Shown one piece after another: positions 715 through 45,527 of a stretch of DNA of 64,000 nucleotides. Location: the NCBI GenBank assembly GCA_018992685.1, contig JACVGT010000014.1, positions 29,040 to 93,039 on the forward strand, in the 5' to 3' direction. This DNA comes from Theionarchaea archaeon. GTDB taxonomy: Archaea; Methanobacteriota_B; Thermococci; Methanofastidiosales; SZ-28-30. The notes under the pieces were generated by a model, which had not been told where the DNA came from, did not search any database, and saw nothing but the letters and a program-made list of their open reading frames with translations. Position 1 is the stretch's first letter; every line of letters starts with the position of its first letter. Position numbers and translations under genes: made by a program.

Positions 715-3225
715 GTGACATTCCTGAAGAGAGCACATGCAATCCCCTTGCGCACAGGTACAGCAGTGGTAGCAGCTGCACTAGTTGCAGCAATAGTTGT
801 AGGATTGAATGAACCTCTCATTGCTGGACTCTCCTGGCTGAGAATGCAGGTCTATGAGAACTCTTTGGGGTTTCTGGGAATCCTGGTGCTCGTAGTGGTA
901 ATCGGCGTGATCCTTTCTCTCAAATCACGGAAAGTCTTGCCCATTGTACTGTCTGCGTTCATCACATTCTGTGTGGTGTTCAATGCCTTTGCCAGCTACC
1001 AGGAAGTTCTCAAGTTCGGGATTAACCAAGATGTCTTTACCGGGCTGGTCAGCATTCTGCTCCATTCTGCTGCCTTTCCTCTCCTCATACTACAGGTAGA
1101 CATTACTCTGTCTGCACTTCTGGGATTGGCGGCTATTGGAATCATGGTGATAAAGGGGTTCATCATAACTAGGAAGTGGATAGAAACCTCTCTTCTGCAA
1201 CAAGGTATCCTCAGCTTTGCCTTCGGCTTCGGGGTGACAGCTTTTTCGACGTTTCTCCTGGCAGCTCTCCAGTTGTTAACAGTACGGAATGTCTTGTTAT
1301 GTGACGCAGCCTTCTTTTGCGCGGTTGCTCTGATTCCATCCCGGAGGTTCAGGCTTCCAGACATAGAACCACCTCTATTAGACCATGAAAAGAAGTGGTG
1401 GAGGATCATTGGAATCGTCCTGGTGGCTGGGCTGCTATATGCTGTATTGTTTCCCCCATTGGAATGGGATTCTCTTGCCTATCAGGCCTATTACTCACGG
1501 TTGGTGTATCAACACGGGGGCCTTCCGGTAATCTTTGGTCCCTCAATTGGGATCGAAATGAGTGCCGCATATCCGCCTGCATACCAGATGCTGGGATGTT
1601 ACACCTACATCTTTTCAGGAGAACCCAGCGCCCAGCTCTTGAGTGTTCTCGGCTACACAGCAGGAATCCTGAGCCTGCTGGTAACATTCTTGTTCTCCAG
1701 CCTGGTTCTTCCTTCACACAGGATCTATGCGGTTCTTGCTGCTGTGGCAGTGCCCTTCTTTCTTGGATTCTCTGCCTCCCCTCACTATATGACTCTGCTA
1801 ATTTTCTTCAATGGGCTCTTTTTGTTTTATGTAACGAGTTATGTCCTGACCAGGAATGTGACTTCTTTATATCTGAGCGTCATTTTTCTGGGAGCAGCCT
1901 GTCTCACCAGCTATCTGGCCCTGGCCTCAGTTTTGATTCTGGTCATTGCATACATAAGGCGAAAATTCCCTCTGAAAGCTTTCTTTTTGCCTGCTGTAAT
2001 CGGCTCACCCCCCTTGCTGAGAAATTTCTACTATACTGGAAATCCTCTGTTCCCCCTTTTCGGACTGGGGCGCCAGCTGCAGAATCCGTTGTGGGAATCC
2101 AATACGAGTCATTTTCAGACCCAGACGATTTATGCGGGATTAGATGTGTTGTCACCCTTTTCTATTCTGGATTTTCTCATGAACAGAATTAGTTCAGTCC
2201 GCCCTCTACTCCCCCTAGTCATCGTGGTTGGTGTGATATTCCTCGTTCTTGTCAGGCCCAAGACAGAGGAAAAGAAATGGCTTGTAGTGTGGTTTCTGGC
2301 CTGCATTGTAATCTTTCTGGTGAGACCCACCTTTGATCGGTACTTGCTGGTGTACATCCCCGTGTATGCGACGTTCTTTGCCTGGCTCATCTACAAGTGT
2401 GAAGTCCTTTCTTTCAGAACACTGAAGTACTCTCTCCAGTTTGCGCTGGCAGTCTCGTTATGTATTGTCGCCCTGGGAATAGCTATTACAGGTCCTTTGA
2501 TGGTAGCGTCTCATGTAAAGCAATTCCCTGATCAACCCCTTGATGATTGGGCATACGTACGACAGTTCTACCCCCATGATACGCCCTGCTGGCGTTACCT
2601 CAACGAGAACACTCCCCCAGGGATGTATGTGGCAACCTATGATATTAGATACTACTACATTGATCAGGAAATATTTCCCCTGGATGGGCTGAAATCTCTT
2701 CCCTTGTATGATATGGACTACCAGGAGGCTCTTACCTTTCTGGAAGAACATGGCGTGGCATACTGGTTCAGCTCGCGGTGGACATCTCCAGCAGATGAGA
2801 CATGTCCCCACGCGTACTACGATAATCCATTGACTCCCTATCTCGGGAGCGATGTGCTTCCTTTGGTATTCGTCTCTGGTCAGTCAGCAGTGTATAATGT
2901 AGGAAAGAAACGAATTGACTACCAGGAACTCTTGACCACGGAGAATGTGTTGTACCCTGTATTTGGATATGAATATAGATTTAGTCAGGGAAATATGGTA
3001 TACTTTGACATTCCTGGAGATTTTCAGGGAAAAGTGATAGTCCTTCGCTTCTCCACAGGTGTAAGGGCATCATTGCATGGAGGTCACGCAGCCTCCCCCT
3101 TGCTCCTCGGAGATACACTTTACAGGACAGAAGGCGAATCCATGGTCTTCATCGCATATTCTGGGAAATATACTCTGTACCTCGAATCTGAGGGACCCTT
3201 CACTGTGCTGGTTTCTATCACCTAG
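715..3225 (+). CDS. Large polytopic membrane protein with a C-terminal soluble domain; putative GT-C-fold glycosyltransferase (ArnT/PMT/DUF2079-like)
   Basis: 836 aa with roughly 14 hydrophobic helices in the first ~520 aa followed by a ~300-aa hydrophilic domain. Sits next to polysaccharide deacetylase and hexapeptide acetyltransferase genes. Family assignment is by topology only. Confidence 0.4.
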   Translation: MTFLKRAHAIPLRTGTAVVAAALVAAIVVGLNEPLIAGLSWLRMQVYENSLGFLGILVLVVVIGVILSLKSRKVLPIVLSAFITFCVVFNAFASYQEVLKFGINQDVFTGLVSILLHSAAFPLLILQVDITLSALLGLAAIGIMVIKGFIITRKWIETSLLQQGILSFAFGFGVTAFSTFLLAALQLLTVRNVLLCDAAFFCAVALIPSRRFRLPDIEPPLLDHEKKWWRIIGIVLVAGLLYAVLFPPLEWDSLAYQAYYSRLVYQHGGLPVIFGPSIGIEMSAAYPPAYQMLGCYTYIFSGEPSAQLLSVLGYTAGILSLLVTFLFSSLVLPSHRIYAVLAAVAVPFFLGFSASPHYMTLLIFFNGLFLFYVTSYVLTRNVTSLYLSVIFLGAACLTSYLALASVLILVIAYIRRKFPLKAFFLPAVIGSPPLLRNFYYTGNPLFPLFGLGRQLQNPLWESNTSHFQTQTIYAGLDVLSPFSILDFLMNRISSVRPLLPLVIVVGVIFLVLVRPKTEEKKWLVVWFLACIVIFLVRPTFDRYLLVYIPVYATFFAWLIYKCEVLSFRTLKYSLQFALAVSLCIVALGIAITGPLMVASHVKQFPDQPLDDWAYVRQFYPHDTPCWRYLNENTPPGMYVATYDIRYYYIDQEIFPLDGLKSLPLYDMDYQEALTFLEEHGVAYWFSSRWTSPADETCPHAYYDNPLTPYLGSDVLPLVFVSGQSAVYNVGKKRIDYQELLTTENVLYPVFGYEYRFSQGNMVYFDIPGDFQGKVIVLRFSTGVRASLHGGHAASPLLLGDTLYRTEGESMVFIAYSGKYTLYLESEGPFTVLVSIT

Positions 3226-3322
3226 CTTCAGGAATCGGTCCTGGTATGGAGCTTTCAAGATTCTCTGTGGCATTCATGAAAAGACTTATATAAGGGACTG
3301 CCTGTTTCAAATCTGTGATTCC

Positions 3323-4729
3323 ATGGATGAAGATTGTGCAGAGTTTGCCGTGGATGCAGCCTCCACTCTAGGAGCCTCATTTGCTGATGCCAGGTTTGAA
3401 CGCCAGGAAAGAACTGATATTGTGCTCAAGAACGGTGGGCTCGATGCTGTATCTACTATCGTCAGCGAAGGCATTGGGATCAGGGTTATCACTTCGAGGG
3501 GAATTGGATTCTCCTCAACCAATGACCTGAGCAAAGTGAGTGTACGCAGGACGGTGAAGGAGGCATTCAGGCAGGCGGAATCCTGCAGGAGAAAGACTCC
3601 TCCTCGGCTTTCAGATGAGAAGAGAGCCACTGCAACATGGGAAGTCCCTCAGAAAGAGAACCTCTCTGACATCGATGTCCAGGAAAAGGTAGCCCGCCTC
3701 ATAGAGGAGGATGAAACGATCTCTTCATCAGGAGATATCCCTGCCAGGATGCTTATTTTTGCTGATAGACAGCTTGAGAAGGTTACTGTAACTTCTGAAG
3801 GGACAAGGATTACCGGGATTCTGCCTGTGCTGCTCTGTTCATACTTTCTCACAGTGAAATGCGGCAACCAAGTGGAGCAGAGTGTGAGACGGTTTGGCTA
3901 TACAGGGGGATGGGAAGGGTTTAGCCAGTTTGACATAGCAGAAGATGGGCTACACGAAGTGGAGATTCTGCAGAGGCTCATGAAGGAAGGGAAGAAATCT
4001 CCCCGTGGTACCATGGACCTGGTTGTTGGACCTGACGTCATCGGTATTATCTGTCATGAGAGCTGCGGCCATCCCATGGAGGCAGATCGGATCCTGGGTA
4101 GGGAAGCTTCTCAGGCAGGAGCATCTTTCATGAACCAGCAGCTTCTGGGAACCCGTGTTGGCTCAGATGAGGTAACAGTTGCAGAAGATCCCACCATTGA
4201 ACACAGCTTCGGCTACTATGCGTATGACGATGAAGGTGTAAAATCCAGGAGACGTTTCCTCTACAAGGATGGGATAATCAACCAGTTCTTGCACAACAGG
4301 GAATCTGCAGCACGAATGGGGACTACCAGCAATGGAGCAGCCAGGAGTTCAGGGTACAACAGAGAGGCAATCGTGAGAATGGCCAATACATATCTGCTTC
4401 CTGGAGAGTACAGTCAGGAAGAACTGATTGAGGGCATCAACCATGGAATATACATGAAATCGTATACTGAGTGGAATATAGATGACAAACGGTATAATCA
4501 GAGATACATAGGAAGAGAGGCATACTGTATTGAACATGGTGAGATAACACATATGGTGAAAAGGCCAACCCTGGAGATCACCACTCCCGGATTTTGGAAG
4601 GCTGTGGATGCTCGAGGGAATGACCTCGTGTTCAGGGCGGGGAATTGTGGAAAAGGAGATCCTATCCAGGAGATGGATGTGCTGTACGGTGGACCCACTA
4701 CCAGGCTGCGAGGAGTTTTCATGAGGTGA
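3323..4729 (+). CDS. tldD: TldD-family metallopeptidase (peptidase U62)
   Basis: HESCGHPME (HExxxH) motif and the glycine-rich C-terminal region typical of TldD. ATG at 3323 gives 468 aa; the longer frame from 3077 overlaps the upstream gene and is rejected. Followed 1 nt later by its PmbA partner. Confidence 0.85.
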   Translation: MDEDCAEFAVDAASTLGASFADARFERQERTDIVLKNGGLDAVSTIVSEGIGIRVITSRGIGFSSTNDLSKVSVRRTVKEAFRQAESCRRKTPPRLSDEKRATATWEVPQKENLSDIDVQEKVARLIEEDETISSSGDIPARMLIFADRQLEKVTVTSEGTRITGILPVLLCSYFLTVKCGNQVEQSVRRFGYTGGWEGFSQFDIAEDGLHEVEILQRLMKEGKKSPRGTMDLVVGPDVIGIICHESCGHPMEADRILGREASQAGASFMNQQLLGTRVGSDEVTVAEDPTIEHSFGYYAYDDEGVKSRRRFLYKDGIINQFLHNRESAARMGTTSNGAARSSGYNREAIVRMANTYLLPGEYSQEELIEGINHGIYMKSYTEWNIDDKRYNQRYIGREAYCIEHGEITHMVKRPTLEITTPGFWKAVDARGNDLVFRAGNCGKGDPIQEMDVLYGGPTTRLRGVFMR

Positions 4730-4730
4730 T

Positions 4731-6056
4731 GTGATGACGGACCATACGAGATGTGCAGTGAAAAAAGCGCTTGAACACGGAGCAACAGATGTCATTGCCA
4801 AGGAAATTACGCGCCGTAACCAGCAGGTGCGATTCTCCAATAATGAGATCGACATAGCCAAGACGTGGTATGAGACCGTGCTGAAGATATTTCTTGTGCA
4901 TGAGAAAAGAGTTGTACTCACAGAAATCAGTAATTTTGACACTCTTGATGAGACGCTGAGCCGGGCACTAAGACTGGCCAGAATCAGTAGGGAAAATCCG
5001 GAATACAGGGGAATTGCTGAAGGTCCCTTTGAGTATCCAGAGACCAAGAGCGATTCCAGATTGAAGAAGATCACAGATCACACAGATTACATCATGGCTG
5101 CCATTAACAAAGCTATTGAGCAGGCTGAGACTACGTTTGGCACTCTGCAGATAATAAATGAGACTATGGCACTGTCAACCTCACGGAATGTGGAAGTTCA
5201 CGATGAGAAGGCGTCCATTGAGCTTTCTATCCGGGCATTCTCTCAGAAGGAGGCTTCTGGGCATAGCGTGACCTGTTCTTCTACACTCAAAGGATTCAAT
5301 CCTGAGAAAGCGGGGGAAGAAGCAGGTGAGTATGCCCGCCTTGCCAGAAATCCTGAACAGGGAAAAGAAGGTACATACGATGTTGTGTTCTCCCCTCTCT
5401 TTGTGGGATCTATTTTGAACTACTCCACTGACATGATTTCTGCATTCAGCGTCTTGGCAGGACGCTCCATGTACGGGGGGAAAATCGGGGAGAAGGTTGC
5501 CTCGGAGGCCGTCACTGTTGTGGATACGCCCGCAGGATTCAACAGAGTGATGGTTGATGATGAAGGAGTTCCAACCAGAGACACTATTCTGATTGACAAG
5601 GGAGAACTGAGAACCTATCTTCACAATACGTCAACAGCTAGAGCGATGAACACAGAAACCACAGCCAATGCCGGATTGGTAAAGCCAGAACCGCTGAATA
5701 TCTGGATGCATCCGGGAGGGTATAGCAGTGAGGCACTTTTCCAGAGTGTCGAGAATGGGTTGTATCTCACAAATACCTGGTACACTCGGTTCCAGAACAT
5801 GCAGACTGGAGACTTCTCCACCATACCGCGTGATGCTATCCTCGTTATTAAGAAAGGAGAAATCGCCGGGTCTATAAAGAATATTAGGGTTTCAGACAAT
5901 ATGCTGCAGCTTTATCTGAACATGGAAGCTGTGGGGAAGGAACAAAAGGTGGTTCACTGGTGGGCTGAAGTGCAATTCCCGTGTTTTGCGTCTCATGTAC
6001 TGGTCCGAAACGTCCACATTACTCGATCGACAGAATCAACGAGTCCATCACAGTAG
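4731..6056 (+). CDS. pmbA: PmbA/TldE-family peptidase partner subunit
   Basis: 441 aa with PmbA-like N-terminus and the conserved C-terminal GxxGxxxR / NTWY region. GTG 4731 or ATG 4734 start immediately after the tldD stop. Confidence 0.8.
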   Translation: MMTDHTRCAVKKALEHGATDVIAKEITRRNQQVRFSNNEIDIAKTWYETVLKIFLVHEKRVVLTEISNFDTLDETLSRALRLARISRENPEYRGIAEGPFEYPETKSDSRLKKITDHTDYIMAAINKAIEQAETTFGTLQIINETMALSTSRNVEVHDEKASIELSIRAFSQKEASGHSVTCSSTLKGFNPEKAGEEAGEYARLARNPEQGKEGTYDVVFSPLFVGSILNYSTDMISAFSVLAGRSMYGGKIGEKVASEAVTVVDTPAGFNRVMVDDEGVPTRDTILIDKGELRTYLHNTSTARAMNTETTANAGLVKPEPLNIWMHPGGYSSEALFQSVENGLYLTNTWYTRFQNMQTGDFSTIPRDAILVIKKGEIAGSIKNIRVSDNMLQLYLNMEAVGKEQKVVHWWAEVQFPCFASHVLVRNVHITRSTESTSPSQ

Positions 6057-10887: not shown

Positions 10888-13284
10888 CTACTTGCGCCTC
10901 ATCTTGAACCGCACATACATTATGATCAGCAAGAACACCACGAGAATGAGTACACCCGAGGAGACTCTCCTCACCCTCTCCTGTTCAACTTGATTTTGAA
11001 TCCGTGCACTGAGGGTCTCAAATTCTATAATAGTCGTTTTGGCTTTATCTTCAGCTTCCTGGTATTTCCCTTCAATAAAAAGGGCTCTGGCTTCTGCCAG
11101 CAATTCAAGGGCTTGATCTATCTCCTCTTCAAGTGCTGTGGTGTTAACATTCAGTTGTTGGGCCTCTTCCAGAGCCAGGGGGATTTTTGAGTAGCTTCTC
11201 TTGGCCTCAGCGATACTCTGCCTGGCTGTCTCCCTGTTCTGCATTTCTTTTTCTGCTCGTTCCTGTTCCAGCAAATAATAGGTTGAAATGACTGCAGCAT
11301 TATCCCCCATGTTGTAAATTTCTGTGAGCAGCTCGTCAGTGAGAGCCAGTCGGTAGGTATACGCAATATAGAATCCTCCCCACAAGGAATTGTCGAGCGA
11401 TGACTGAGGATACGCACCCACACTGGTGATCCCATTGTTATAAGCAACAATTAAGGAATTAATTAAGTTCTCCCGGGCTGGAGGTGCAGGAGATTCAACG
11501 TAAAAACTCAGGATGTACTTTGAGGGAGTAGGGAGGCTCTTTACTATGTATTCTACGCGAGGTGGGTTTTGAAGACCGATGTTGATCAGGACAATCCGGT
11601 CAACGATATCTTCCACCTCTGGGAGGTACAACCCGTACTCAGAAGAAGCAAGTTCCAAGTTGGCAGAAACTGGGACCTCCACCCACAATTCCTTGTTGGA
11701 ATCGCGTATAAGTTCCCTGAGGTCCCGCAGAAACTGGGAAAGCAGACTGGTCTTCCATTCTCTCACGGTTGGATCATAAATATTGATGCTGCCATCTGTC
11801 CTGGGCCAGTCTTCTACAGGGACACCTTTCTGAGCCATGTAATCAATATAGGATTGCAGGCAATCAATACAGAAACAGTCTTCCAGATAGTACAGTTGAG
11901 TAACAAGGATTGCTTCTGCATCATAATTGTTTGCTAGATACGTGACCATTTCAAAGAATTCTGTTTTATAAGGGTCCTGGATGAGTGCTGTGAGACATAT
12001 TCTCTTTCTCAGGACTCCCCACTCAAACGTTACAGAAGCTGAATCTTTATATCTGGTTGCAAATTCCTCGGACTGGGCATTGACCTGCAGGACACCGTAC
12101 AGATTGGCATTCCGTGCCTTGGAGATCATCTCATCAACATAATCTCGATCATATTTCTGTATGTAGGCACTCCACTTGTCGGGATAGGGCCAATACTTGA
12201 AGTATGTTGAGAACACGTGACCTGCCGGCAGAACAGCTGTGTTGACCTCGTAGCTTCTCCACTCTTCCATATTGTACTGATTGTTAAAGAACTCAATAAA
12301 GGTCAATCGAGTCATCCGAATGTCTTCAAAGGGAATTTGAGCCTTCTTTATGCGTTCGAAGTCCTTTCTCTGCCAGGCATCAGAATCAAAGATGAGCATA
12401 TCTGCATACGTACTCTCAGCCACCTGAGCTCTGGCATTGCTGACGTAGTCATCAGGAATGATGACGTACACTCCTGCTTTGGTCAACAACGTCAGCCTGT
12501 TGATGAGCGGAGTCGGGTTAGCCTCAGTCTGAACAGCCACAAAGGTAGCTACTCCCGGAGGCACATACTCTGCATCCTGATCTTGCAGTTCTTCAGGGAT
12601 GACTGTCACACCCACAGGCAGGTCTTGAGGCATAATGTCACGCAGAAAGTCAGAAAGGACTTCATTCCGGTAGGAGAGCCAGTCATACCAGAGGGGGGTA
12701 TTGCGTTCTTTTTCAAGCGATAGGTCAATGGAACCCATGTTATACCCGTATCGCTGCCCAAAATTGGCCTTTAATTCATCACTGGCAGCAAAATCATCAG
12801 GAAACCACAGATAATCGAAAAGTATCCCATCAATTGGATATGCTGTTACCTCATTCATCATGATTGTGTAGTACTGTCTCGATTTCAGAGGAGAGATCCA
12901 GTATTCTTTTGTGGCCATGTTCTGTTCCGCAAGCCACCTGTCATACAAGAGAGGAATCCACGCATACACCTTGATATTCTGATCATGTGCCTTCTTCAGA
13001 GTCTCATCAAGCACATCAAACTCGGACTTAACAAGGCTCCTGGGACTATTGTAGTACACCAGTCCTGAATCTGGTCCAGTGTCCTGCTTTATCATGAGAA
13101 AAATGTAGGAAACTCCATATTCTGCGCACAAATTCACAATAGAATCTATGTCTGCCTTTGTCTGTATAATATCATGGGGACGCACAAAGATCGCCAGAGG
13201 TAGATCAGTTGGTAATGATGCCGAAGGTGTGGGAATCATGGCAAGGCCCAATACAATGAGGAAGAGTACTGCAGCTCGATTCAT
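10888..13284 (-). CDS. Large secreted protein: signal peptide, TIM-barrel-like glycoside-hydrolase-like domain (GHL10/DUF187-like), long coiled-coil stalk, C-terminal TM anchor
   Basis: N-terminal signal peptide (MNRAAVLFLIVLGLAMIPTPSAS). Central region resembles the YngK/GHL10 family. C-terminal ~150 aa is heptad-rich (EKEMQNRETARQSIAEAKRS ... QVEQERVRR), followed by a hydrophobic anchor and a KMRRK tail. Confidence 0.35.
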   Translation of the reverse strand: MNRAAVLFLIVLGLAMIPTPSASLPTDLPLAIFVRPHDIIQTKADIDSIVNLCAEYGVSYIFLMIKQDTGPDSGLVYYNSPRSLVKSEFDVLDETLKKAHDQNIKVYAWIPLLYDRWLAEQNMATKEYWISPLKSRQYYTIMMNEVTAYPIDGILFDYLWFPDDFAASDELKANFGQRYGYNMGSIDLSLEKERNTPLWYDWLSYRNEVLSDFLRDIMPQDLPVGVTVIPEELQDQDAEYVPPGVATFVAVQTEANPTPLINRLTLLTKAGVYVIIPDDYVSNARAQVAESTYADMLIFDSDAWQRKDFERIKKAQIPFEDIRMTRLTFIEFFNNQYNMEEWRSYEVNTAVLPAGHVFSTYFKYWPYPDKWSAYIQKYDRDYVDEMISKARNANLYGVLQVNAQSEEFATRYKDSASVTFEWGVLRKRICLTALIQDPYKTEFFEMVTYLANNYDAEAILVTQLYYLEDCFCIDCLQSYIDYMAQKGVPVEDWPRTDGSINIYDPTVREWKTSLLSQFLRDLRELIRDSNKELWVEVPVSANLELASSEYGLYLPEVEDIVDRIVLINIGLQNPPRVEYIVKSLPTPSKYILSFYVESPAPPARENLINSLIVAYNNGITSVGAYPQSSLDNSLWGGFYIAYTYRLALTDELLTEIYNMGDNAAVISTYYLLEQERAEKEMQNRETARQSIAEAKRSYSKIPLALEEAQQLNVNTTALEEEIDQALELLAEARALFIEGKYQEAEDKAKTTIIEFETLSARIQNQVEQERVRRVSSGVLILVVFLLIIMYVRFKMRRK

Positions 13285-14551: not shown

Positions 14552-14761
14552 ATGGCATTACCACTAGCATCTGTTGACAAGTTGATTCGAAAGGCCGGTG
14601 CTCACCGTGTGTCAGAAGACGCGGCTAAGGAACTTGCAGCTCATCTGCAGGAGACAGCTATCGAGGTTGCCCGCGAAGCCATAACACTGGCAGACCACGC
14701 AGGGAGAAAGACGGTCAAGGCCGAGGACATTGCGCTGGCCAAGAAGCGAATGTTTGAGTGA
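14552..14761 (+). CDS. Archaeal histone (HMf-like histone fold)
   Basis: 69 aa: MALPLASVDKLIRKAG...AKELAAHLQETAIEVAREAITLADHAGRKTVKAEDIALAKKRMF, the canonical archaeal histone fold. Confidence 0.9.
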   Translation: MALPLASVDKLIRKAGAHRVSEDAAKELAAHLQETAIEVAREAITLADHAGRKTVKAEDIALAKKRMFE

Positions 14762-16424: not shown

Positions 16425-16740
16425 ACAGGATTTTAAAACTTTTCCGGAAGAACCGCAGCCAGCCTATGATTCATCAAAGAATGACTAGTGGGGGTTCTGC
16501 CAACCATCACATTCTGGCAGTACAAAGGTATATAGTACTGATTACGAATCTTTACAGATTTACAATGCGTTGAGAAAGCTTGGAATACACAGCTTGATAA
16601 GAACAGGCTGCTGTGAAACCAACTAGCTAGCCCCACAACACTCGCGAAATCTGCGAAAAATCGATGAGTGACAGAAAACTTCTAAAGGTGGAACTCACAA
16701 ATGAGTTAGAGGTGAGAAAATGGACTGCATAAGGAAACTC

Positions 16741-16790
16741 GGTGGAGGACCAGGTGTCCCCACGAAATTGGGTGGAGGACCAGGTGTCCC
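16741..16790. repeat. Direct repeat: two copies of ggtggaggaccaggtgtccc with 30-bp periodicity
   Basis: Exact 20-mer at 16741-16760 and 16771-16790 separated by 10 nt, in a 510-bp non-coding spacer. Confidence 0.85.
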
Positions 16791-16942
16791 GACATCCAAC
16801 TGAATAATTCACTCGTTCAAGGTAACTTCCGTGATCCATCACAGGATCAGGGTTATTCTTCTCATATTGGGTAATGGATCTTTTTTCTTTTTCGTCCCTT
16901 CCCTACTCTTCTGGCCTAGCCGTGCTCATCCTTCAAGAAGCA

Positions 16943-17911
16943 TCATTCCACAAGACTCTGTTCTTCCTCACCCTCAATGTAGTGAAGGACGCCAATGGCC
17001 TGACTAAATTTGTCTATCATGCCGCTGGTTTTCATGAATTGAAGCGTTGCTGAAAGATCAGTGAAGGTGAGATCTGACTTGATGCTCAGCCACACCAGCA
17101 ACCCTTCCTCGGTATGGGTACAGACAGTACTGGTAGGAAGGTTTGAGAGGAGTGCAATTACTGCGTCAGTGTATCCAGTTCTGAGGAGGAACACAAAGTG
17201 AGTGTAGTTGAGATAGCCATCAGGGTAGAACCTCATGAGGACAGTCGTATGGTTACAGACAGTTTCTAGCCACTGGTAAAACTTGTCAGATGAGATCAAA
17301 TGTTTTCTCAACGCAGGAGTGACTTTCTTTCTGAAATCATATTCATATTCATAAAACAGTTTCCATTCTTCTTCATCCCAGGAGGGAGGTTCATGGACAG
17401 GCAACCCCACCTTTTCAAGACCATTGGGCTCAAACTCGTGTGCCTGACTCTTCATTCGCTTGAAAGCTGGAATCCAATCAGTGAGAGGGACCCGGGGAGT
17501 AGTGATGTCTCCTCGTACTCCCTGGAACAATAAGTATTCAAATCCTTCAATGTGAGAGGGGTCATATTTCCCGTCTGAAATGTACATGATGTTCCAGTCT
17601 CCTAGGAACAAGCTACAATAGTCGATCTGAGGAATCTCTCTTAGCTGTTCAAATGCATTGTTTGGATCATCAAACTTGACGAGATGAAAGTATTTATTTA
17701 GTCCGGGATAGTATTCAAGTCTCAATTCTGGTCCAAACAGTATCTGAGAATCATACATATGATCTAAATAGCTGGAAACTGTATTTCGTGCCATTTTAAC
17801 ATTCTTAGAAATCTCATGAACGTGTACTCTGGGATTTACATATATTTGATTATATATAGCATGGTATCTTCTCAATTTCTCCTTTCTTGTAAGTTTGCTC
17901 ATATAACTCAT
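16943..17911 (-). CDS. Orphan hypothetical protein with an N-terminal helix-turn-helix (putative DNA-binding protein); rest has no recognisable family
   Basis: 322 aa. Residues ~25-60 (VHVHEISKNVKMARNTVSSYLDHM) look like a classical HTH. Isolated by long AT-rich intergenic regions on both sides. Confidence 0.4.
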   Translation of the reverse strand: MSYMSKLTRKEKLRRYHAIYNQIYVNPRVHVHEISKNVKMARNTVSSYLDHMYDSQILFGPELRLEYYPGLNKYFHLVKFDDPNNAFEQLREIPQIDYCSLFLGDWNIMYISDGKYDPSHIEGFEYLLFQGVRGDITTPRVPLTDWIPAFKRMKSQAHEFEPNGLEKVGLPVHEPPSWDEEEWKLFYEYEYDFRKKVTPALRKHLISSDKFYQWLETVCNHTTVLMRFYPDGYLNYTHFVFLLRTGYTDAVIALLSNLPTSTVCTHTEEGLLVWLSIKSDLTFTDLSATLQFMKTSGMIDKFSQAIGVLHYIEGEEEQSLVE

Positions 17912-18029
17912 CCCAACATTAATATAGTACTTCTTCGTAGCTATGTACGTCCATATCGCATATGGACCGATGTATAGGCTATGTCCCTAAGCTATAAATA
18001 CCTTTCGGCACGGATCTTTCACCCCCTTC

Positions 18030-18056
18030 GAGACCGGTTGTTCTACAACCGGTCTC
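18030..18056. promoter_or_regulatory. Perfect palindrome GAGACCGGTTG-ttcta-CAACCGGTCTC (11-bp arms) in the 5' region of the HTH gene
   Basis: Exact inverted repeat about 120 bp upstream of the HTH gene start (minus strand) and about 320 bp upstream of hdrC. Confidence 0.6.
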
Positions 18057-18376
18057 CCAAACACGACAAACACGCTTTTTTAAACACGTTTTTCTTTCCT
18101 TTTTCTAATCAACTCAACATGTCCACTCTTTCGTGATAATATTTTATTAGGTTCCTTCTGGACGCCTCCAGAGGGTGTTCTCCTGACCTTTCCAGATAGT
18201 GCACACCGTTTCAATGTCTTCCCTATGTCTCGACTACCTTCTCGAAATATATTTACACATTTTCTACAGAAAAAACTATATAAACTAAAAGGCTAAGATT
18301 TATAAATGTAAAGGAAGACTAAACCTTTGACCTCAAAGCCAAAGAAAAAGAAAAATGTACTTGAAGGAGCGAGAGA

Positions 18377-19752: not shown

Positions 19753-21721
19753 ACCTCGAATCGGAGTGTATGTGTGCCATTGCGGCTTGAACATTGGTGC
19801 AGTTGTGGATGTTGCTGCTGTGGCTCAATATGCCCAGACGCTTCCTGGCGTGGTGGTTTCAAGAGAATCAACCTACACATGCAGCGACAATGGTCAGAGA
19901 TCTATCCAGGAAGACATCGAGAACCACAACCTGAGTCGGGTGGTGGTGGCTTCCTGCAGTCCGCGCATGCATGGCGATACCTTCATGAAGACCTGTGAGA
20001 CTGCAGGGCTGAACCCGTACCTTTTTGAGATGGTCAATATCAGAGAGCAATGTTCATGGGTGCACACTGATAAAGAACAGGCCACAGAGAAGGCCAAAGA
20101 CTTGGTGAGAATGGCAGTTGCCAAAGTACGATTACTGGAACCCTTAGAAAAGCAGAAATCTGCCGTCAACAAGGCTGCACTGGTGATTGGAGGAGGAGTG
20201 GCCGGTATTTTCTCTGCTTTGTACCTGGCAAATGCAGGAATTAAAACATACGTTGTTGAGAAAAAGCCGTCTATTGGAGGACACATGGCTCAACTGGACA
20301 AGACATTCCCCACCCTGGACTGTAGTCTGTGCATTCTTTCTCCAAGAATGGCAGATATAGGAAAACATGAAAATATCGAACTCATTACCTATGCAGATAT
20401 TGAGAATATTTCAGGATACGCGGGGAATTTTCAGGTTACGGTGAAAAGCAACCCACGCTATGTCATAAAGGAGAACTGCCGACTGTGCGGTGTGTGTGCG
20501 GAAAAATGTCCTATCTCGCTGCCCGATGAGTTCAACATGGGATTGAAGAAAAGGAAAGCAGTGTACATACCTTTCCCGCAGGCAGTTCCGAATTACTACC
20601 TCATCGATGCTGGTCACTGTTTACACATTACCAAGGGAGGATGCATGCTGTGCCAGAAAAACTGTCCCAATGATGCCATTGATTTTGAAGAGACAGAAGC
20701 AGTGAGAGAGCTCAATGTGGGCGCCATCATTGTGGCCACGGGATTTGAGCTGTATGATGCTACCCAGAAGAAGGAGTACGGATACGGGAGGTATCCCAAT
20801 GTCATCACCAACATGGACTTCGAAAGGTGGGTGAGTGCAGATGGCCCTACCCACGGCAAGGTTGTGAGGCCTTCAGACGGAGCCCCCCCTCAGAGGATTG
20901 GGTTCATCCAGTGTGTCGGATCCCGAGACGAGAAGGAGGGAGCAGTCTACTGCTCTCGTATCTGCTGCATGGCAACGGTAAAGCAGGCCACGATGCTCAG
21001 GGAGAAGTACCCCTCAGCTGAAATATATGTGTACTACACTGACATGCGAACTCCTGGCAAAGGGTTTGAAGAATTTTACCAGAGAGGACGTGAGCATGGG
21101 ATTGTATTCATCAGAGGAAAGCCAGGGGAAATTGAAGAAGATGACAATCACAATCTCCTTATCGTGTCAGAGGACACCGATTCCGGGCTCATCCTGCGCA
21201 ACACCTTGGACCTTGTGGTGTTGGCATGTGGACTTCGGCCACCTGAGGCGTTGGAAGAACTTGCACAGAAGTTGCATTTATCGCGAAGCCCTGACGGATT
21301 CATTATGGAGGCGCATCCCAAATTGCGTCCTGCAGAAACAAGTATCTCTGGAGTATTCCTGACTGGATGTGTTCAATTCCCCAAAGATATTCCAGATACG
21401 GTGGCACAATCAGGAGGAGCCGCCGCTATGGCCGCGGCCCTGTTGACGAAAGATGAGATCGAACTTGAGCCAGTAAGGGCAGCGGTGGACGAAGAACTGT
21501 GTATCGGGTGTGGATTGTGCGAGGAAAACTGCGACTATGGGGCCATTGAGGTAAAGAAAACAGAAGAAGGAATGAAGGCCCAGGTCATTGAAGTAGCCTG
21601 CCAGGGATGCGGTGTCTGTGCAGCCAGCTGTCCTCAGAAAGCAGTGACAGTCCGTCACTTCACAGATGGTCAGCTGCTGGCCCAGGTCACTGCTGCTCTA
21701 GAACCTGAGGTGATCGTGTGA
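19739..21721 (+). CDS. hdrA: Heterodisulfide reductase subunit A (canonical domain order)
   Basis: N-terminal Cys cluster domain (IGVYVCHCGLNIG ... ASCSPRMHG), FAD motif LVIGGGVAGIFSAL, inserted ferredoxin (CRLCGVCAEKCP / CMLCQKNCP), GPKDIPDTVAQ region, C-terminal 2x[4Fe-4S] ferredoxin (CIGCGLCEENC / CQGCGVCAASCP). Confidence 0.9.
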   Translation: MSKSEPRIGVYVCHCGLNIGAVVDVAAVAQYAQTLPGVVVSRESTYTCSDNGQRSIQEDIENHNLSRVVVASCSPRMHGDTFMKTCETAGLNPYLFEMVNIREQCSWVHTDKEQATEKAKDLVRMAVAKVRLLEPLEKQKSAVNKAALVIGGGVAGIFSALYLANAGIKTYVVEKKPSIGGHMAQLDKTFPTLDCSLCILSPRMADIGKHENIELITYADIENISGYAGNFQVTVKSNPRYVIKENCRLCGVCAEKCPISLPDEFNMGLKKRKAVYIPFPQAVPNYYLIDAGHCLHITKGGCMLCQKNCPNDAIDFEETEAVRELNVGAIIVATGFELYDATQKKEYGYGRYPNVITNMDFERWVSADGPTHGKVVRPSDGAPPQRIGFIQCVGSRDEKEGAVYCSRICCMATVKQATMLREKYPSAEIYVYYTDMRTPGKGFEEFYQRGREHGIVFIRGKPGEIEEDDNHNLLIVSEDTDSGLILRNTLDLVVLACGLRPPEALEELAQKLHLSRSPDGFIMEAHPKLRPAETSISGVFLTGCVQFPKDIPDTVAQSGGAAAMAAALLTKDEIELEPVRAAVDEELCIGCGLCEENCDYGAIEVKKTEEGMKAQVIEVACQGCGVCAASCPQKAVTVRHFTDGQLLAQVTAALEPEVIV

Positions 21722-22458
21722 CATTTTCTCCTAGGATTGTAGGGTTCATGTGTAACTGGTGTTCGTATGCAGGAGCTGATCTGGCTGGAATTTCGAGGAT
21801 AAAATATGCTCCCAATCTGAGGATTATCAGAGTGCTGTGTTCCGGGCGAGTTGACCCTTACGTAGTTCTGACCGCATTCCAAAAGGGTGCAGACGGCGTT
21901 CTGGTTGCAGGGTGCCACCCTGGAGACTGCCACTACATATCAGGGAACTACCAGGCAGAAAAGAAAATGAAAGCGACATGGAAGATATTGAGCAAAGCAG
22001 GGATTGATCAAGAAAGACTGGGACTGGAATGGATTTCTGCAGCAGAAGGTCAGCGATTTGCTGACGTTGTCAACTCGTTTACTCAACTGATTACTGAGTT
22101 GGGACCGCTTCAGGCTGATCCGCAGAAGATTGCCTCGGCCAAGGAAGAGACTGCAGATTTCAGAATTAGGTGGCTGGTGGGAAGAGAAAAAGACTTGCTG
22201 GAAGAGGGAAATGTGTTTGGCGAACCTGTAGAAGAAGCAGTGTTTGAGACCCTTCTGGATGATGTTGTTTCTGCCCAATACATCAGGAATTCTATTCTCA
22301 CCGTGCTCAAGGAACAGTCTATGTCAGCCAAAGAACTGGCAGAAACTCTTGAAATTCCTTCTCACGTGGTTGTGGAGCATTTGATTCACCTGCGGAGAGG
22401 GCAGAAGGTGCACATGGTTGAAGGTCATCCCATTCGGTACGAGGTGAGCGCATGGTAG
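21718..22458 (+). CDS. mvhD: MvhD-like [2Fe-2S] electron-transfer protein fused to a C-terminal winged-helix-like domain
   Basis: Residues 1-135 are MvhD (VGFMCNWCSYAGADLAG ... VAGCHPGDCHYISGN). An extra ~110 aa tail contains an HTH-like stretch SMSAKELAETLEIPSHVVVEHLIHLRRGQKV. GTG start overlaps the hdrA stop (GTGA). Confidence 0.8.
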   Translation: MTFSPRIVGFMCNWCSYAGADLAGISRIKYAPNLRIIRVLCSGRVDPYVVLTAFQKGADGVLVAGCHPGDCHYISGNYQAEKKMKATWKILSKAGIDQERLGLEWISAAEGQRFADVVNSFTQLITELGPLQADPQKIASAKEETADFRIRWLVGREKDLLEEGNVFGEPVEEAVFETLLDDVVSAQYIRNSILTVLKEQSMSAKELAETLEIPSHVVVEHLIHLRRGQKVHMVEGHPIRYEVSAW

Positions 22459-45420: not shown

Positions 45421-45527
45421 GCCGGGGTGGCTTAGCCTGGTTATAGCGCTCGGCTCATAAGCTCAATGAAATTGGATTCATCACCTGAGACACCGAGAGG
45501 TCGCGGGTTCGGATCCCGCCCCCGGCA
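45421..45527 (+). tRNA. tRNA with CAU anticodon (elongator Met or Ile2), containing a ~32-nt intron in the anticodon loop; no encoded CCA
   Basis: Acceptor stem GCCGGGG/CCCCGGC + A73. D-arm GCU..AGC. Anticodon stem CUCGG/CCGAG with loop CU-CAU-A. T-arm GCGGG-UUCGGAU-CCCGC. The two halves are separated by agctcaatgaaattggattcatcacctgagac. G1-C72 and a non-GGG anticodon stem argue against initiator tRNA. Confidence 0.85.
45460..45491 (+). other. tRNA intron at the canonical 37/38 position (boundaries uncertain by 1 nt)
   Basis: 32-nt insertion between the anticodon-loop A and the 3' half of the anticodon stem. Confidence 0.6.

Follow-up and report, generated by a model that had tools for sequence, protein, structure and literature searches.

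In bacteria, several transcription factor genes are paired divergently with the gene of a small RNA, as in OxyR-OxyS, GcvA-GcvB and SgrR-SgrS. To our knowledge, no archaeal system of peptide-based signalling or recognition has been described so far. Many receptor-peptide pairs are present per genome in Paenibacillus (PMC7425212), and AhbA and AhbB indicate that the Lrp/AsnC-like fold can also be that of an enzyme (PMC3942049). Here, we analyzed a stretch of 64,000 nucleotides (nt) from a Theionarchaea archaeon (GenBank assembly GCA_018992685.1, contig JACVGT010000014.1, positions 29,040 to 93,039 of the forward strand), hereafter the window, and in it the region 16425-18376, where a minus-strand gene for a helix-turn-helix (HTH) protein stands between two long spacers. 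With moderate confidence, we read this region as a vertically inherited, lineage-specific three-part module of Theionarchaea, composed of a regulator gene, a convergent micropeptide gene and a 5' control block. Among the Theionarchaea papers listed by a literature search, titles and abstracts mention neither the protein family nor the peptide nor the element.

In the mechanism that we propose, the regulator gene would encode a ligand-sensing transcription factor in which two modules, each a winged helix plus a RAM-like ligand-binding domain, are fused. The product of the convergent gene, a Gly/Pro-rich micropeptide, would be the partner of this regulator, either as ligand, as effector or as regulated product. 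The near-invariant 5' block, which is probably bidirectional, would direct transcription towards the regulator gene from a strong promoter with a transcription factor B recognition element (BRE) and TATA box, and its opposite strand would yield a small RNA of about 133 nt with one hairpin at its start and a palindrome at its end.

The minus-strand open reading frame (ORF) at 16943-17911 comprises 322 codons, as an earlier note made from this DNA had reported, and its true start is probably the second ATG (17902; M4, 319 amino acids [aa]) because most orthologs carry a stop codon between the two ATGs; the orthologs start with MSKLT at the second one. A protein search gave 23 ortholog clusters (56-92% identical, nearly all 311-331 aa), from which six ortholog loci were fetched (encoded proteins 57-92% identical to the window protein). 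The gene order mvhD-hdrA-hdrB-hdrC, the divergent gene, then asparaginase and HD protein genes was found in every one of these six loci, and the same genes, together with a histone gene, are the neighbors in the window. One lineage has other genes past hdrB and past the HD protein gene, yet the gene still lies between hdrC and the asparaginase gene. A Theionarchaea metagenome-assembled genome (MAG; isolate SZ_28-30) was 84% identical to the window over 8 kb.

The earlier note had described the gene as the only one in about 1.9 kb, bracketed by long non-coding flanks. The length was borne out, since the spacers (518 nt at 16425-16942 and 465 nt at 17912-18376) are the second and joint fourth longest of the 68 ORF-to-ORF gaps in the window (median, 19 nt), but one of them holds a conserved micro-ORF (16720-16803) and the other an ultraconserved element.

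The conserved block upstream of the regulator gene

The 5' block is conserved far above the adjacent protein. Among 16 distinct ortholog loci, the mean pairwise identity at positions 17950-18031 was 0.976, and 94 of the 109 columns between -156 and -48 from the start codon were invariant, whereas in the adjacent gene this was true of 27 of 325 third codon positions and, at first and second positions together, of 290 of 650. Noncoding blocks this conserved are seldom found, and as a rule they signal either an RNA of importance or a control region of a very unusual kind. On the gene strand, the block runs from a hairpin through AAGGGGGTGAAAGATCCGTG, CCGAAAGG-TATTTATA and GCTTAGGGACATAGCCTATAC to a second hairpin, and the first of these hairpins is invariant in orthologs and unrelated in sequence in the paralogs considered below. 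The palindrome (18030-18056) is perfect, as had been noted earlier, with arms of 12 bp instead of the 11 bp given then; it is unique in the window (0 expected by chance), and its arms are invariant in orthologs except for the loop and the closing pair. The AAACACG copies and T-runs that had been listed beside it (18059-18104) were also present. Orthologs keep the AAACACG repeats (CGTGTTT on the other strand) with an A-run, and the other AAACACG copies in the window shared no common context. From the archaeal consensus, we take CCGAAAGG-TATTTATA to be a BRE/TATA-like promoter. The stretch between the opposing box TTAATATA and the block (17926-17949) had an identity of only 0.72.

We lean towards the view that a divergent small RNA of about 133 nt is encoded on the plus strand of the block (17949-18081), with a hairpin at either end and an unpaired core between them. 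Part of this core, UCACCCCCU, resembles the 3' end of 16S rRNA. A divergent plus-strand RNA is suggested because the wobble pairs of the hairpins favor that strand: imperfect stem positions were G.U on the plus strand and A.C on the gene strand (15 versus 2, 19 versus 2 and 2 versus 0 in three hairpin types), and in the hairpin at 17949-17967, two variants with a changed stem base pair had G.U on the plus strand only. Several observations weigh against the proposed module and its RNA. The raw wobble counts are phylogenetically non-independent, and the number of independent events was estimated at 12-13 versus 2. Single-sequence folding did not discriminate the strands (z of -3.4 for the plus strand versus -4.1), and in the paralogs a T-run follows the hairpin on the gene strand, not on the strand of the proposed RNA. 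Furthermore, the same hairpin sequence was found with four different downstream genes; at those paralog loci, therefore, the hairpin does not serve the neighboring protein as its cognate operator, which argues there against the palindrome in that role.

On neither strand did the block match an Rfam 15 family at the gathering score, whether in the window or in any of 16 related loci, and matches at E up to 10 were at chance level. An H/ACA or C/D guide RNA was rejected by eye, as neither pocket nor boxes were seen. We also rejected an upstream micro-ORF on the gene strand (GGGGGTGA-N7-GTG, MPKG...), whose GTG is absent from the closest paralog.

The strongest competitor of the RNA is a purely DNA-level control region, that is, a strong and possibly bidirectional promoter with flanking binding sites and the palindrome as operator, where extreme conservation would arise from dense overlapping protein-binding sites and from gene conversion between copies. 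We give this a substantial chance, though clearly short of even. It would explain why CCGAAAGG-TATTTATA is invariant and recurs at the canonical 22 nt before the start codons of paralogs, and it agrees with palindrome arms that are invariant in sequence and not just in structure, as fits sequence-specific recognition by a protein. Concerted evolution is plausible as well, because the core is a frequent break point of contigs and also a recombination boundary of the cassettes described below. On the other hand, a one-strand G.U bias is unexpected for double-stranded operators, and the loop lengths and bulges differ among paralog hairpins. The proportion of invariant columns given above also exceeds that of usual promoter or operator DNA, and gene conversion cannot account for identity between species at a single-copy syntenic locus.

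A different proposal, also made in the earlier note, is that the protein is a local regulator of the divergent hdrCBA-mvhD operon. This would be compatible with the three-part module, and the gene adjoins hdrC in every ortholog lineage, even where the genes after hdrB differ; its position is a lead on the regulation of energy metabolism in an uncultured lineage. Nevertheless, we consider such a role doubtful, at perhaps one chance in a handful. hdrC has its own invariant TATA region, which is split from the block by variable, indel-rich sequence that in one relative contains an insertion of about 300 nt (L001, about 4860-5230; absent in other lineages). The motifs of the block were not seen recurring at the hdrC promoter, the only copy of the palindrome in the window being that in the block, and paralogs with the same element adjoin unrelated genes.

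The micropeptide gene and the paralog cassettes

The 3' spacer was aligned across seven lineages. Its micro-ORF was present in every ortholog lineage with downstream sequence, in 15 DNA versions that encode 13 peptides, and always with a Shine-Dalgarno site. The conserved Gly and Pro codons vary at their third bases, and the peptides share the pattern M-[DN]-[CS]-x-[RKG]-x-x-G-x-G-P-G-x-P-x. From these features we infer that 16720-16803 is a translated gene. The relatives' micropeptides consist of one unit (15 aa) or two units (26-30 aa). The 30-bp-period repeat that had been reported in a non-coding flank is real (16734-16793) but lies inside this gene. In one relative (L005, 6961-8015), an array of at least three tandem copies of the micropeptide gene, every copy having a Shine-Dalgarno site of its own, lengthens the 3' spacer to 1055 nt; their number is uncertain because an assembly gap (a run of N) interrupts the array. 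The conserved TCGC-N7-GCGA motif upstream of the micropeptide promoter may be a binding site of the regulator. More generally, a long spacer that seems empty in a compact archaeal genome can conceal micro-genes of 15-30 codons, which gene callers pass over.

The exact 26-mer of the core, GGGGGTGAAAGATCCGTGCCGAAAGG, was found in 2 GTDB genomes and 27 metagenome contigs and had no match in viral contigs; the window has a single copy of the core element. As would be expected of a multi-copy repeat, many contigs terminate at the core. In about half of its copies, the 26-mer precedes the gene of a very distant paralog (17-25% identity to the window protein). The closest paralog, P0024 (35% identical), which served as an unbiased check, comes from the same MAG as one ortholog and has a diverged yet recognizable element, in which a different hairpin is followed by GGGGGGTGAAAGATC-GG-CCGAAAGATTTATAAA. 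In the paralogs, CCGAAAGaTTTTTATA again precedes the ATG by exactly 22 nt, as expected for leaderless mRNAs. Their hairpin stems could not be aligned with MAFFT, and the ortholog seed sequences of the element are invariant.

The paralog loci have a cassette structure, in which flanks of 84-99% nucleotide identity enclose proteins that are only 19-39% identical. In an example pair, identity was 92% over -792 to +115 (counted from the core), a stretch that stops some 20 nt short of the ATG; no similarity was seen across the gene of about 1 kb (proteins 21% identical), and identity returned to 94% for about 180 nt after it. Four more locus pairs showed the same pattern. Two proteins that are 83% identical lie in different flank types, and cassettes therefore move between contexts. 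Hairpins as integron-like attC sites were rejected, since the cassettes have their boundaries close to the ATG and within the peptide gene, away from the hairpin, and an integrase was not seen.

The conserved 3' flank of these cassettes belongs to a convergent micro-ORF, of which it holds the putative promoter, Shine-Dalgarno site and N-terminus; this micro-ORF abuts the stop of the gene with a gap of -4 to +4 nt. Such a micro-ORF was present in all paralogs with the full core upstream, and it was absent from operon-embedded paralogs without the element directly upstream. The paralog peptides (27-33 aa, 12 versions) start with MK[EG]LKGWPFEP[LF] and continue in a variable Gly/Pro/Asp-rich tail that ends with Pro-x; those of the MKELKGWPFEP type have no hydrophobic segment. 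P0024 has an overlapping version of 70 aa with a hydrophobic N-terminus, as judged by eye, and a tail with DPFKDVISTVNDGDGGGGGGGIPDSSGDGGES, and homologs of this peptide were found in close relatives only. Mean identity was highest in the leader (89%), lower in the tail (44%) and lowest in the protein (28%). Tail identity was correlated with the identity of the partner proteins (Mantel r = 0.58, p = 0.0002), whereas leader identity was not (r = 0.13). Two points count against the proposed mechanism: the co-variation of tail and protein could reflect linkage within one cassette alone, and the window peptide has neither the paralog leader nor an export signal nor a hydrophobic segment. By its sequence, the window peptide looks like a leaderless version of the paralog tail.

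The micropeptide might instead be the precursor of a ribosomally made modified peptide or cofactor, with the double winged-helix protein as its leader-binding or maturation partner and not a transcription factor. The conserved leader and variable tail of the paralog peptides would suit a pathway of this kind, as would the duplicated peptide unit and the amplified gene in one relative, and the leader-recognition domains of such pathways are winged-helix-like. We nevertheless rate this explanation as unlikely, because no conserved modifying enzyme was seen beside the pair, the window peptide is leaderless, and the fold is that of full-length Lrp/AsnC regulators.

Further observations were made around the paralog loci. 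In locus L048 (2282-2336), and also in L049, an orphan core with its own hairpin is followed by no family gene and adjoins an IS630-like transposase pair (HTH_23 and DDE_3); it may mark a disrupted unit. In L022, L041, L025 and L018, the 400-800 nt beyond the hairpin, away from the gene, are non-coding and 84-92% identical between loci. They contain hairpin-like stretches and AAACACG/CGTGT motifs, had no match in Rfam, and are followed by small winged-helix ORFs and by a closer family paralog. In L028 and L019, the core motif is present once more, in diverged form (GGAGGTGAAGATC), in the region beyond the hairpin. Beside the paralog cassette of L022, in a variable region, an ORF (907-4524) matches phosphoglycerate-mutase-like, TFIIB-repeat and NACHT/STAND NTPase families, and may be several genes read through.

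The regulator protein and the origin of the region

A profile search of 1.84 billion representatives (50% identity level, threshold E<=0.001) returned 224 relatives, and the named ones were from Theionarchaea or Methanofastidiosia. Family proteins have about 300-320 aa. Orthologs scored 605 bits and the next relative 260 bits, and this drop therefore indicates a large, very divergent paralog family; a tblastn search for paralogs elsewhere in the window found none. The gene is under purifying selection, with mean pairwise identities of 0.73, 0.84 and 0.50 at codon positions 1, 2 and 3.

The earlier note had recognized an HTH followed by about 260 aa of no known family and had suggested a regulator, which the fold supports. 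In sequence, Pfam, NCBIfam and PDB-sequence searches with the single protein and with the profile gave nothing beyond a sub-threshold HTH; in structure, the high-confidence model displayed two Lrp/AsnC-like modules fused in one chain and matched full-length Lrp/AsnC regulators. The model was built from a deep alignment and replaced a mediocre one based on orthologs only (pLDDT, 65.5). It contains an N-terminal AsnC-type winged helix of three helices plus wing, and the RAM fold is packed against the HTH as in solved structures. In a 78-sequence alignment of the family, HTH_24 was matched by 44 members (best E, 7e-8) and an HTH of the AsnC type by 10. Sequence comparison also yielded results that speak against this assignment. 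The window protein itself reached HTH_24 only with E 0.0023 and 17.9 bits, under the Pfam cut-off of 21.9; the Pfam family of the RAM domain (AsnC_trans_reg) was matched by none of the 78 members, and NCBIfam gave no match; and a comparison of the N-terminal with the C-terminal half by HHalign left an internal duplication unsupported (probability, 0.2%). The second helical bundle is unrecognizable as an HTH by sequence, and it is the modelled structure that points to a duplicated module. On this model, the protein is most likely a ligand-sensing, presumably DNA-binding transcription factor that forms a pseudo-dimer of two modules, and it would be an atypical fused variant that works like an Lrp/AsnC regulator without being a sequence-level member of that family.

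It is very improbable that the protein is a siroheme decarboxylase-type enzyme (NirDL/AhbAB) and not a regulator. AhbA and AhbB have themselves been annotated as Lrp/AsnC-family regulators (PMC3942049), but the window protein has 10% sequence identity to NirDL and had no match in the family and structure databases searched above, no tetrapyrrole genes are found in the neighborhood, and a hypervariable multi-paralog family is unexpected for a housekeeping enzyme.

The suggestions of a horizontally acquired AT-rich island or of a decayed toxin/immunity or defence locus have next to no chance and are regarded as refuted because synteny is strict and GC content at third codon positions is normal (0.446 in the gene versus 0.485 in window genes, sd 0.044, within 1 sd); the earlier note had itself named conserved synteny as evidence against them, and the gene was present at this position in all ortholog loci examined. 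The lower GC content that had been noted by eye is genuine and mild, about 5 points (region, 0.419 versus 0.469 in the window; gene, 0.418 versus a gene mean of 0.468, sd 0.025), and distant paralogs do occur in variable regions, with a STAND NTPase, a nuclease and an IS630-like transposase as neighbors. Codon positions 1 and 2 are nevertheless conserved well above the third, PADLOC (defence) and PHROGs (phage) gave no meaningful match, and no mobile-element gene was seen near the window locus.

The features of the module are collected in Table 1. Elsewhere in the window, a histone-fold gene of 69 aa (14552-14761, plus strand) lies in an apparent further long spacer, and its synteny is kept in relatives. 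A 798-aa ORF at 10888-13284 (minus strand) has no Pfam match; several relatives (L008, L009) have a counterpart in the same place, about 800 aa long. The MvhD (FlpD) homolog at 21718-22458 (plus strand) carries a C-terminal PF0610-like/HTH_20 winged-helix extension (residues about 190-227) and would join a redox subunit to a domain of DNA-binding-like type. In the longest spacer of the window, a 107-nt Rfam match to tRNA (45421-45527, plus strand; 53.4 bits) was not called by ARAGORN and is probably an intron-containing archaeal tRNA.

Table 1. Positions of the module's features in the window; promoter and RNA assignments are putative.
Feature	Position	Strand	Remarks
TCGC-N7-GCGA motif with A-run, TCGCGAAATCTGCGAAAAA	16642-16660	+	upstream of micropeptide promoter; conserved in all ortholog lineages
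BRE/TATA-like box AGAAAAC-TTCTAAAG	16673-16687	+	22 nt before Shine-Dalgarno site
Shine-Dalgarno site GAGGTGA	16709-16715	+	invariant across aligned spacers; followed by ATG
Micropeptide gene	16720-16803	+	27 aa, MDCIRKLGGGPGVPTKLGGGPGVPTSN; convergent with regulator gene
30-bp direct repeat	16734-16793	+	two copies, 90% identical; in-frame duplication of 10-codon unit KLGGGPGVPT
Regulator gene	16943-17902	-	319 aa; modelled winged HTH and RAM-like domain, then three-helix bundle and RAM-like domain
TATA-like box TTAATATA	17919-17926	+	invariant; 22 nt before first base of block (21-22 nt in orthologs checked)
Ultraconserved block, candidate divergent small RNA	17949-18081	+	about 133 nt; 5' hairpin, unpaired core with UCACCCCCU, 3' hairpin (palindrome), AAACACG repeats, T6
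8-bp hairpin GTCCATAT-CGC-ATATGGAC	17949-17967		lower edge of invariant block; in all orthologs and one paralog type
BRE/TATA-like box CCGAAAGG-TATTTATA	17993-18008	-	towards regulator gene; invariant in orthologs; predicted start near 17970
26-mer GGGGGTGAAAGATCCGTGCCGAAAGG	18001-18026	-	invariant; core of dispersed element
Palindrome/hairpin GAGACCGGTTGT TCT ACAACCGGTCTC	18030-18056		12-bp arms, 3-nt loop
AAACACG, three copies	18059-18088	+	nine in window versus 4.4 expected; three within 30 bp
T-runs T6, T5, T5	18076-18081, 18089-18093, 18100-18104	+	with the AAACACG copies, putative 3' tail/termination region of the plus-strand RNA
TATA-like box of hdrC, AAGaTTTATAAA	18295-18306	+	columns invariant; separate from ultraconserved block

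Comparison with known systems

None of the closest known systems includes the region as a sequence-level member. As a tentative proposal, we suggest that Theionarchaea and their relatives may have a hitherto unrecognized receptor-micropeptide specificity system, in which the double Lrp/AsnC-like protein would recognize its cognate micropeptide and hypervariable paralog cassettes would be exchanged as in pherotype or self/non-self loci. Its units would be controlled by small RNAs of a new class, about 130 nt long, whose core would be invariant and anti-Shine-Dalgarno-like and whose terminal hairpins would vary, and the window locus, beside the hdr operon, would be the one conserved core-genome member of the system. 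That the module as a whole is a new type of system is possible, and we put it no higher than that. If true, a conserved regulator-micropeptide pair with cassette-like diversification would open archaeal peptide signalling to direct testing.

Typical Lrp/AsnC proteins consist of a single module of about 150 aa that forms dimers or octamers, whereas the protein described here has two modules in one chain of 319 aa, has no RAM-family sequence match, and belongs to a family confined to Theionarchaea and Methanofastidiosia. NirDL and AhbAB share its double Lrp/AsnC-like fold, and differ in their low sequence identity to it, their families and their tetrapyrrole context; the paralogs of the present protein are hypervariable and are paired with micropeptide genes.

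In comparison with the bacterial divergent pairs of the OxyR-OxyS type, the element described here is multi-copy, has an invariant core and variable terminal hairpins, and its putative RNA belongs to no Rfam family. The likeness lies in the arrangement, in which a candidate structured RNA gene stands back-to-back with a transcription factor gene and the promoter regions overlap.

The receptor-peptide loci of Firmicutes (Rap-Phr, PlcR-PapR, agr, comQXP) differ in host, the present one being archaeal, and in the place of the peptide gene, which here is convergent and not downstream; there is also no histidine-kinase receptor here. Unlike in RRNPP-like receptors, no tetratricopeptide repeat (TPR) domain was found in the Pfam scan and fold search of the protein. 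Only one paralog type has an obvious hydrophobic N-terminus. In both, however, an HTH protein gene is accompanied by an adjacent tiny peptide gene in many paralogous pairs, and a variable receptor and a variable peptide end lie between conserved flanks.

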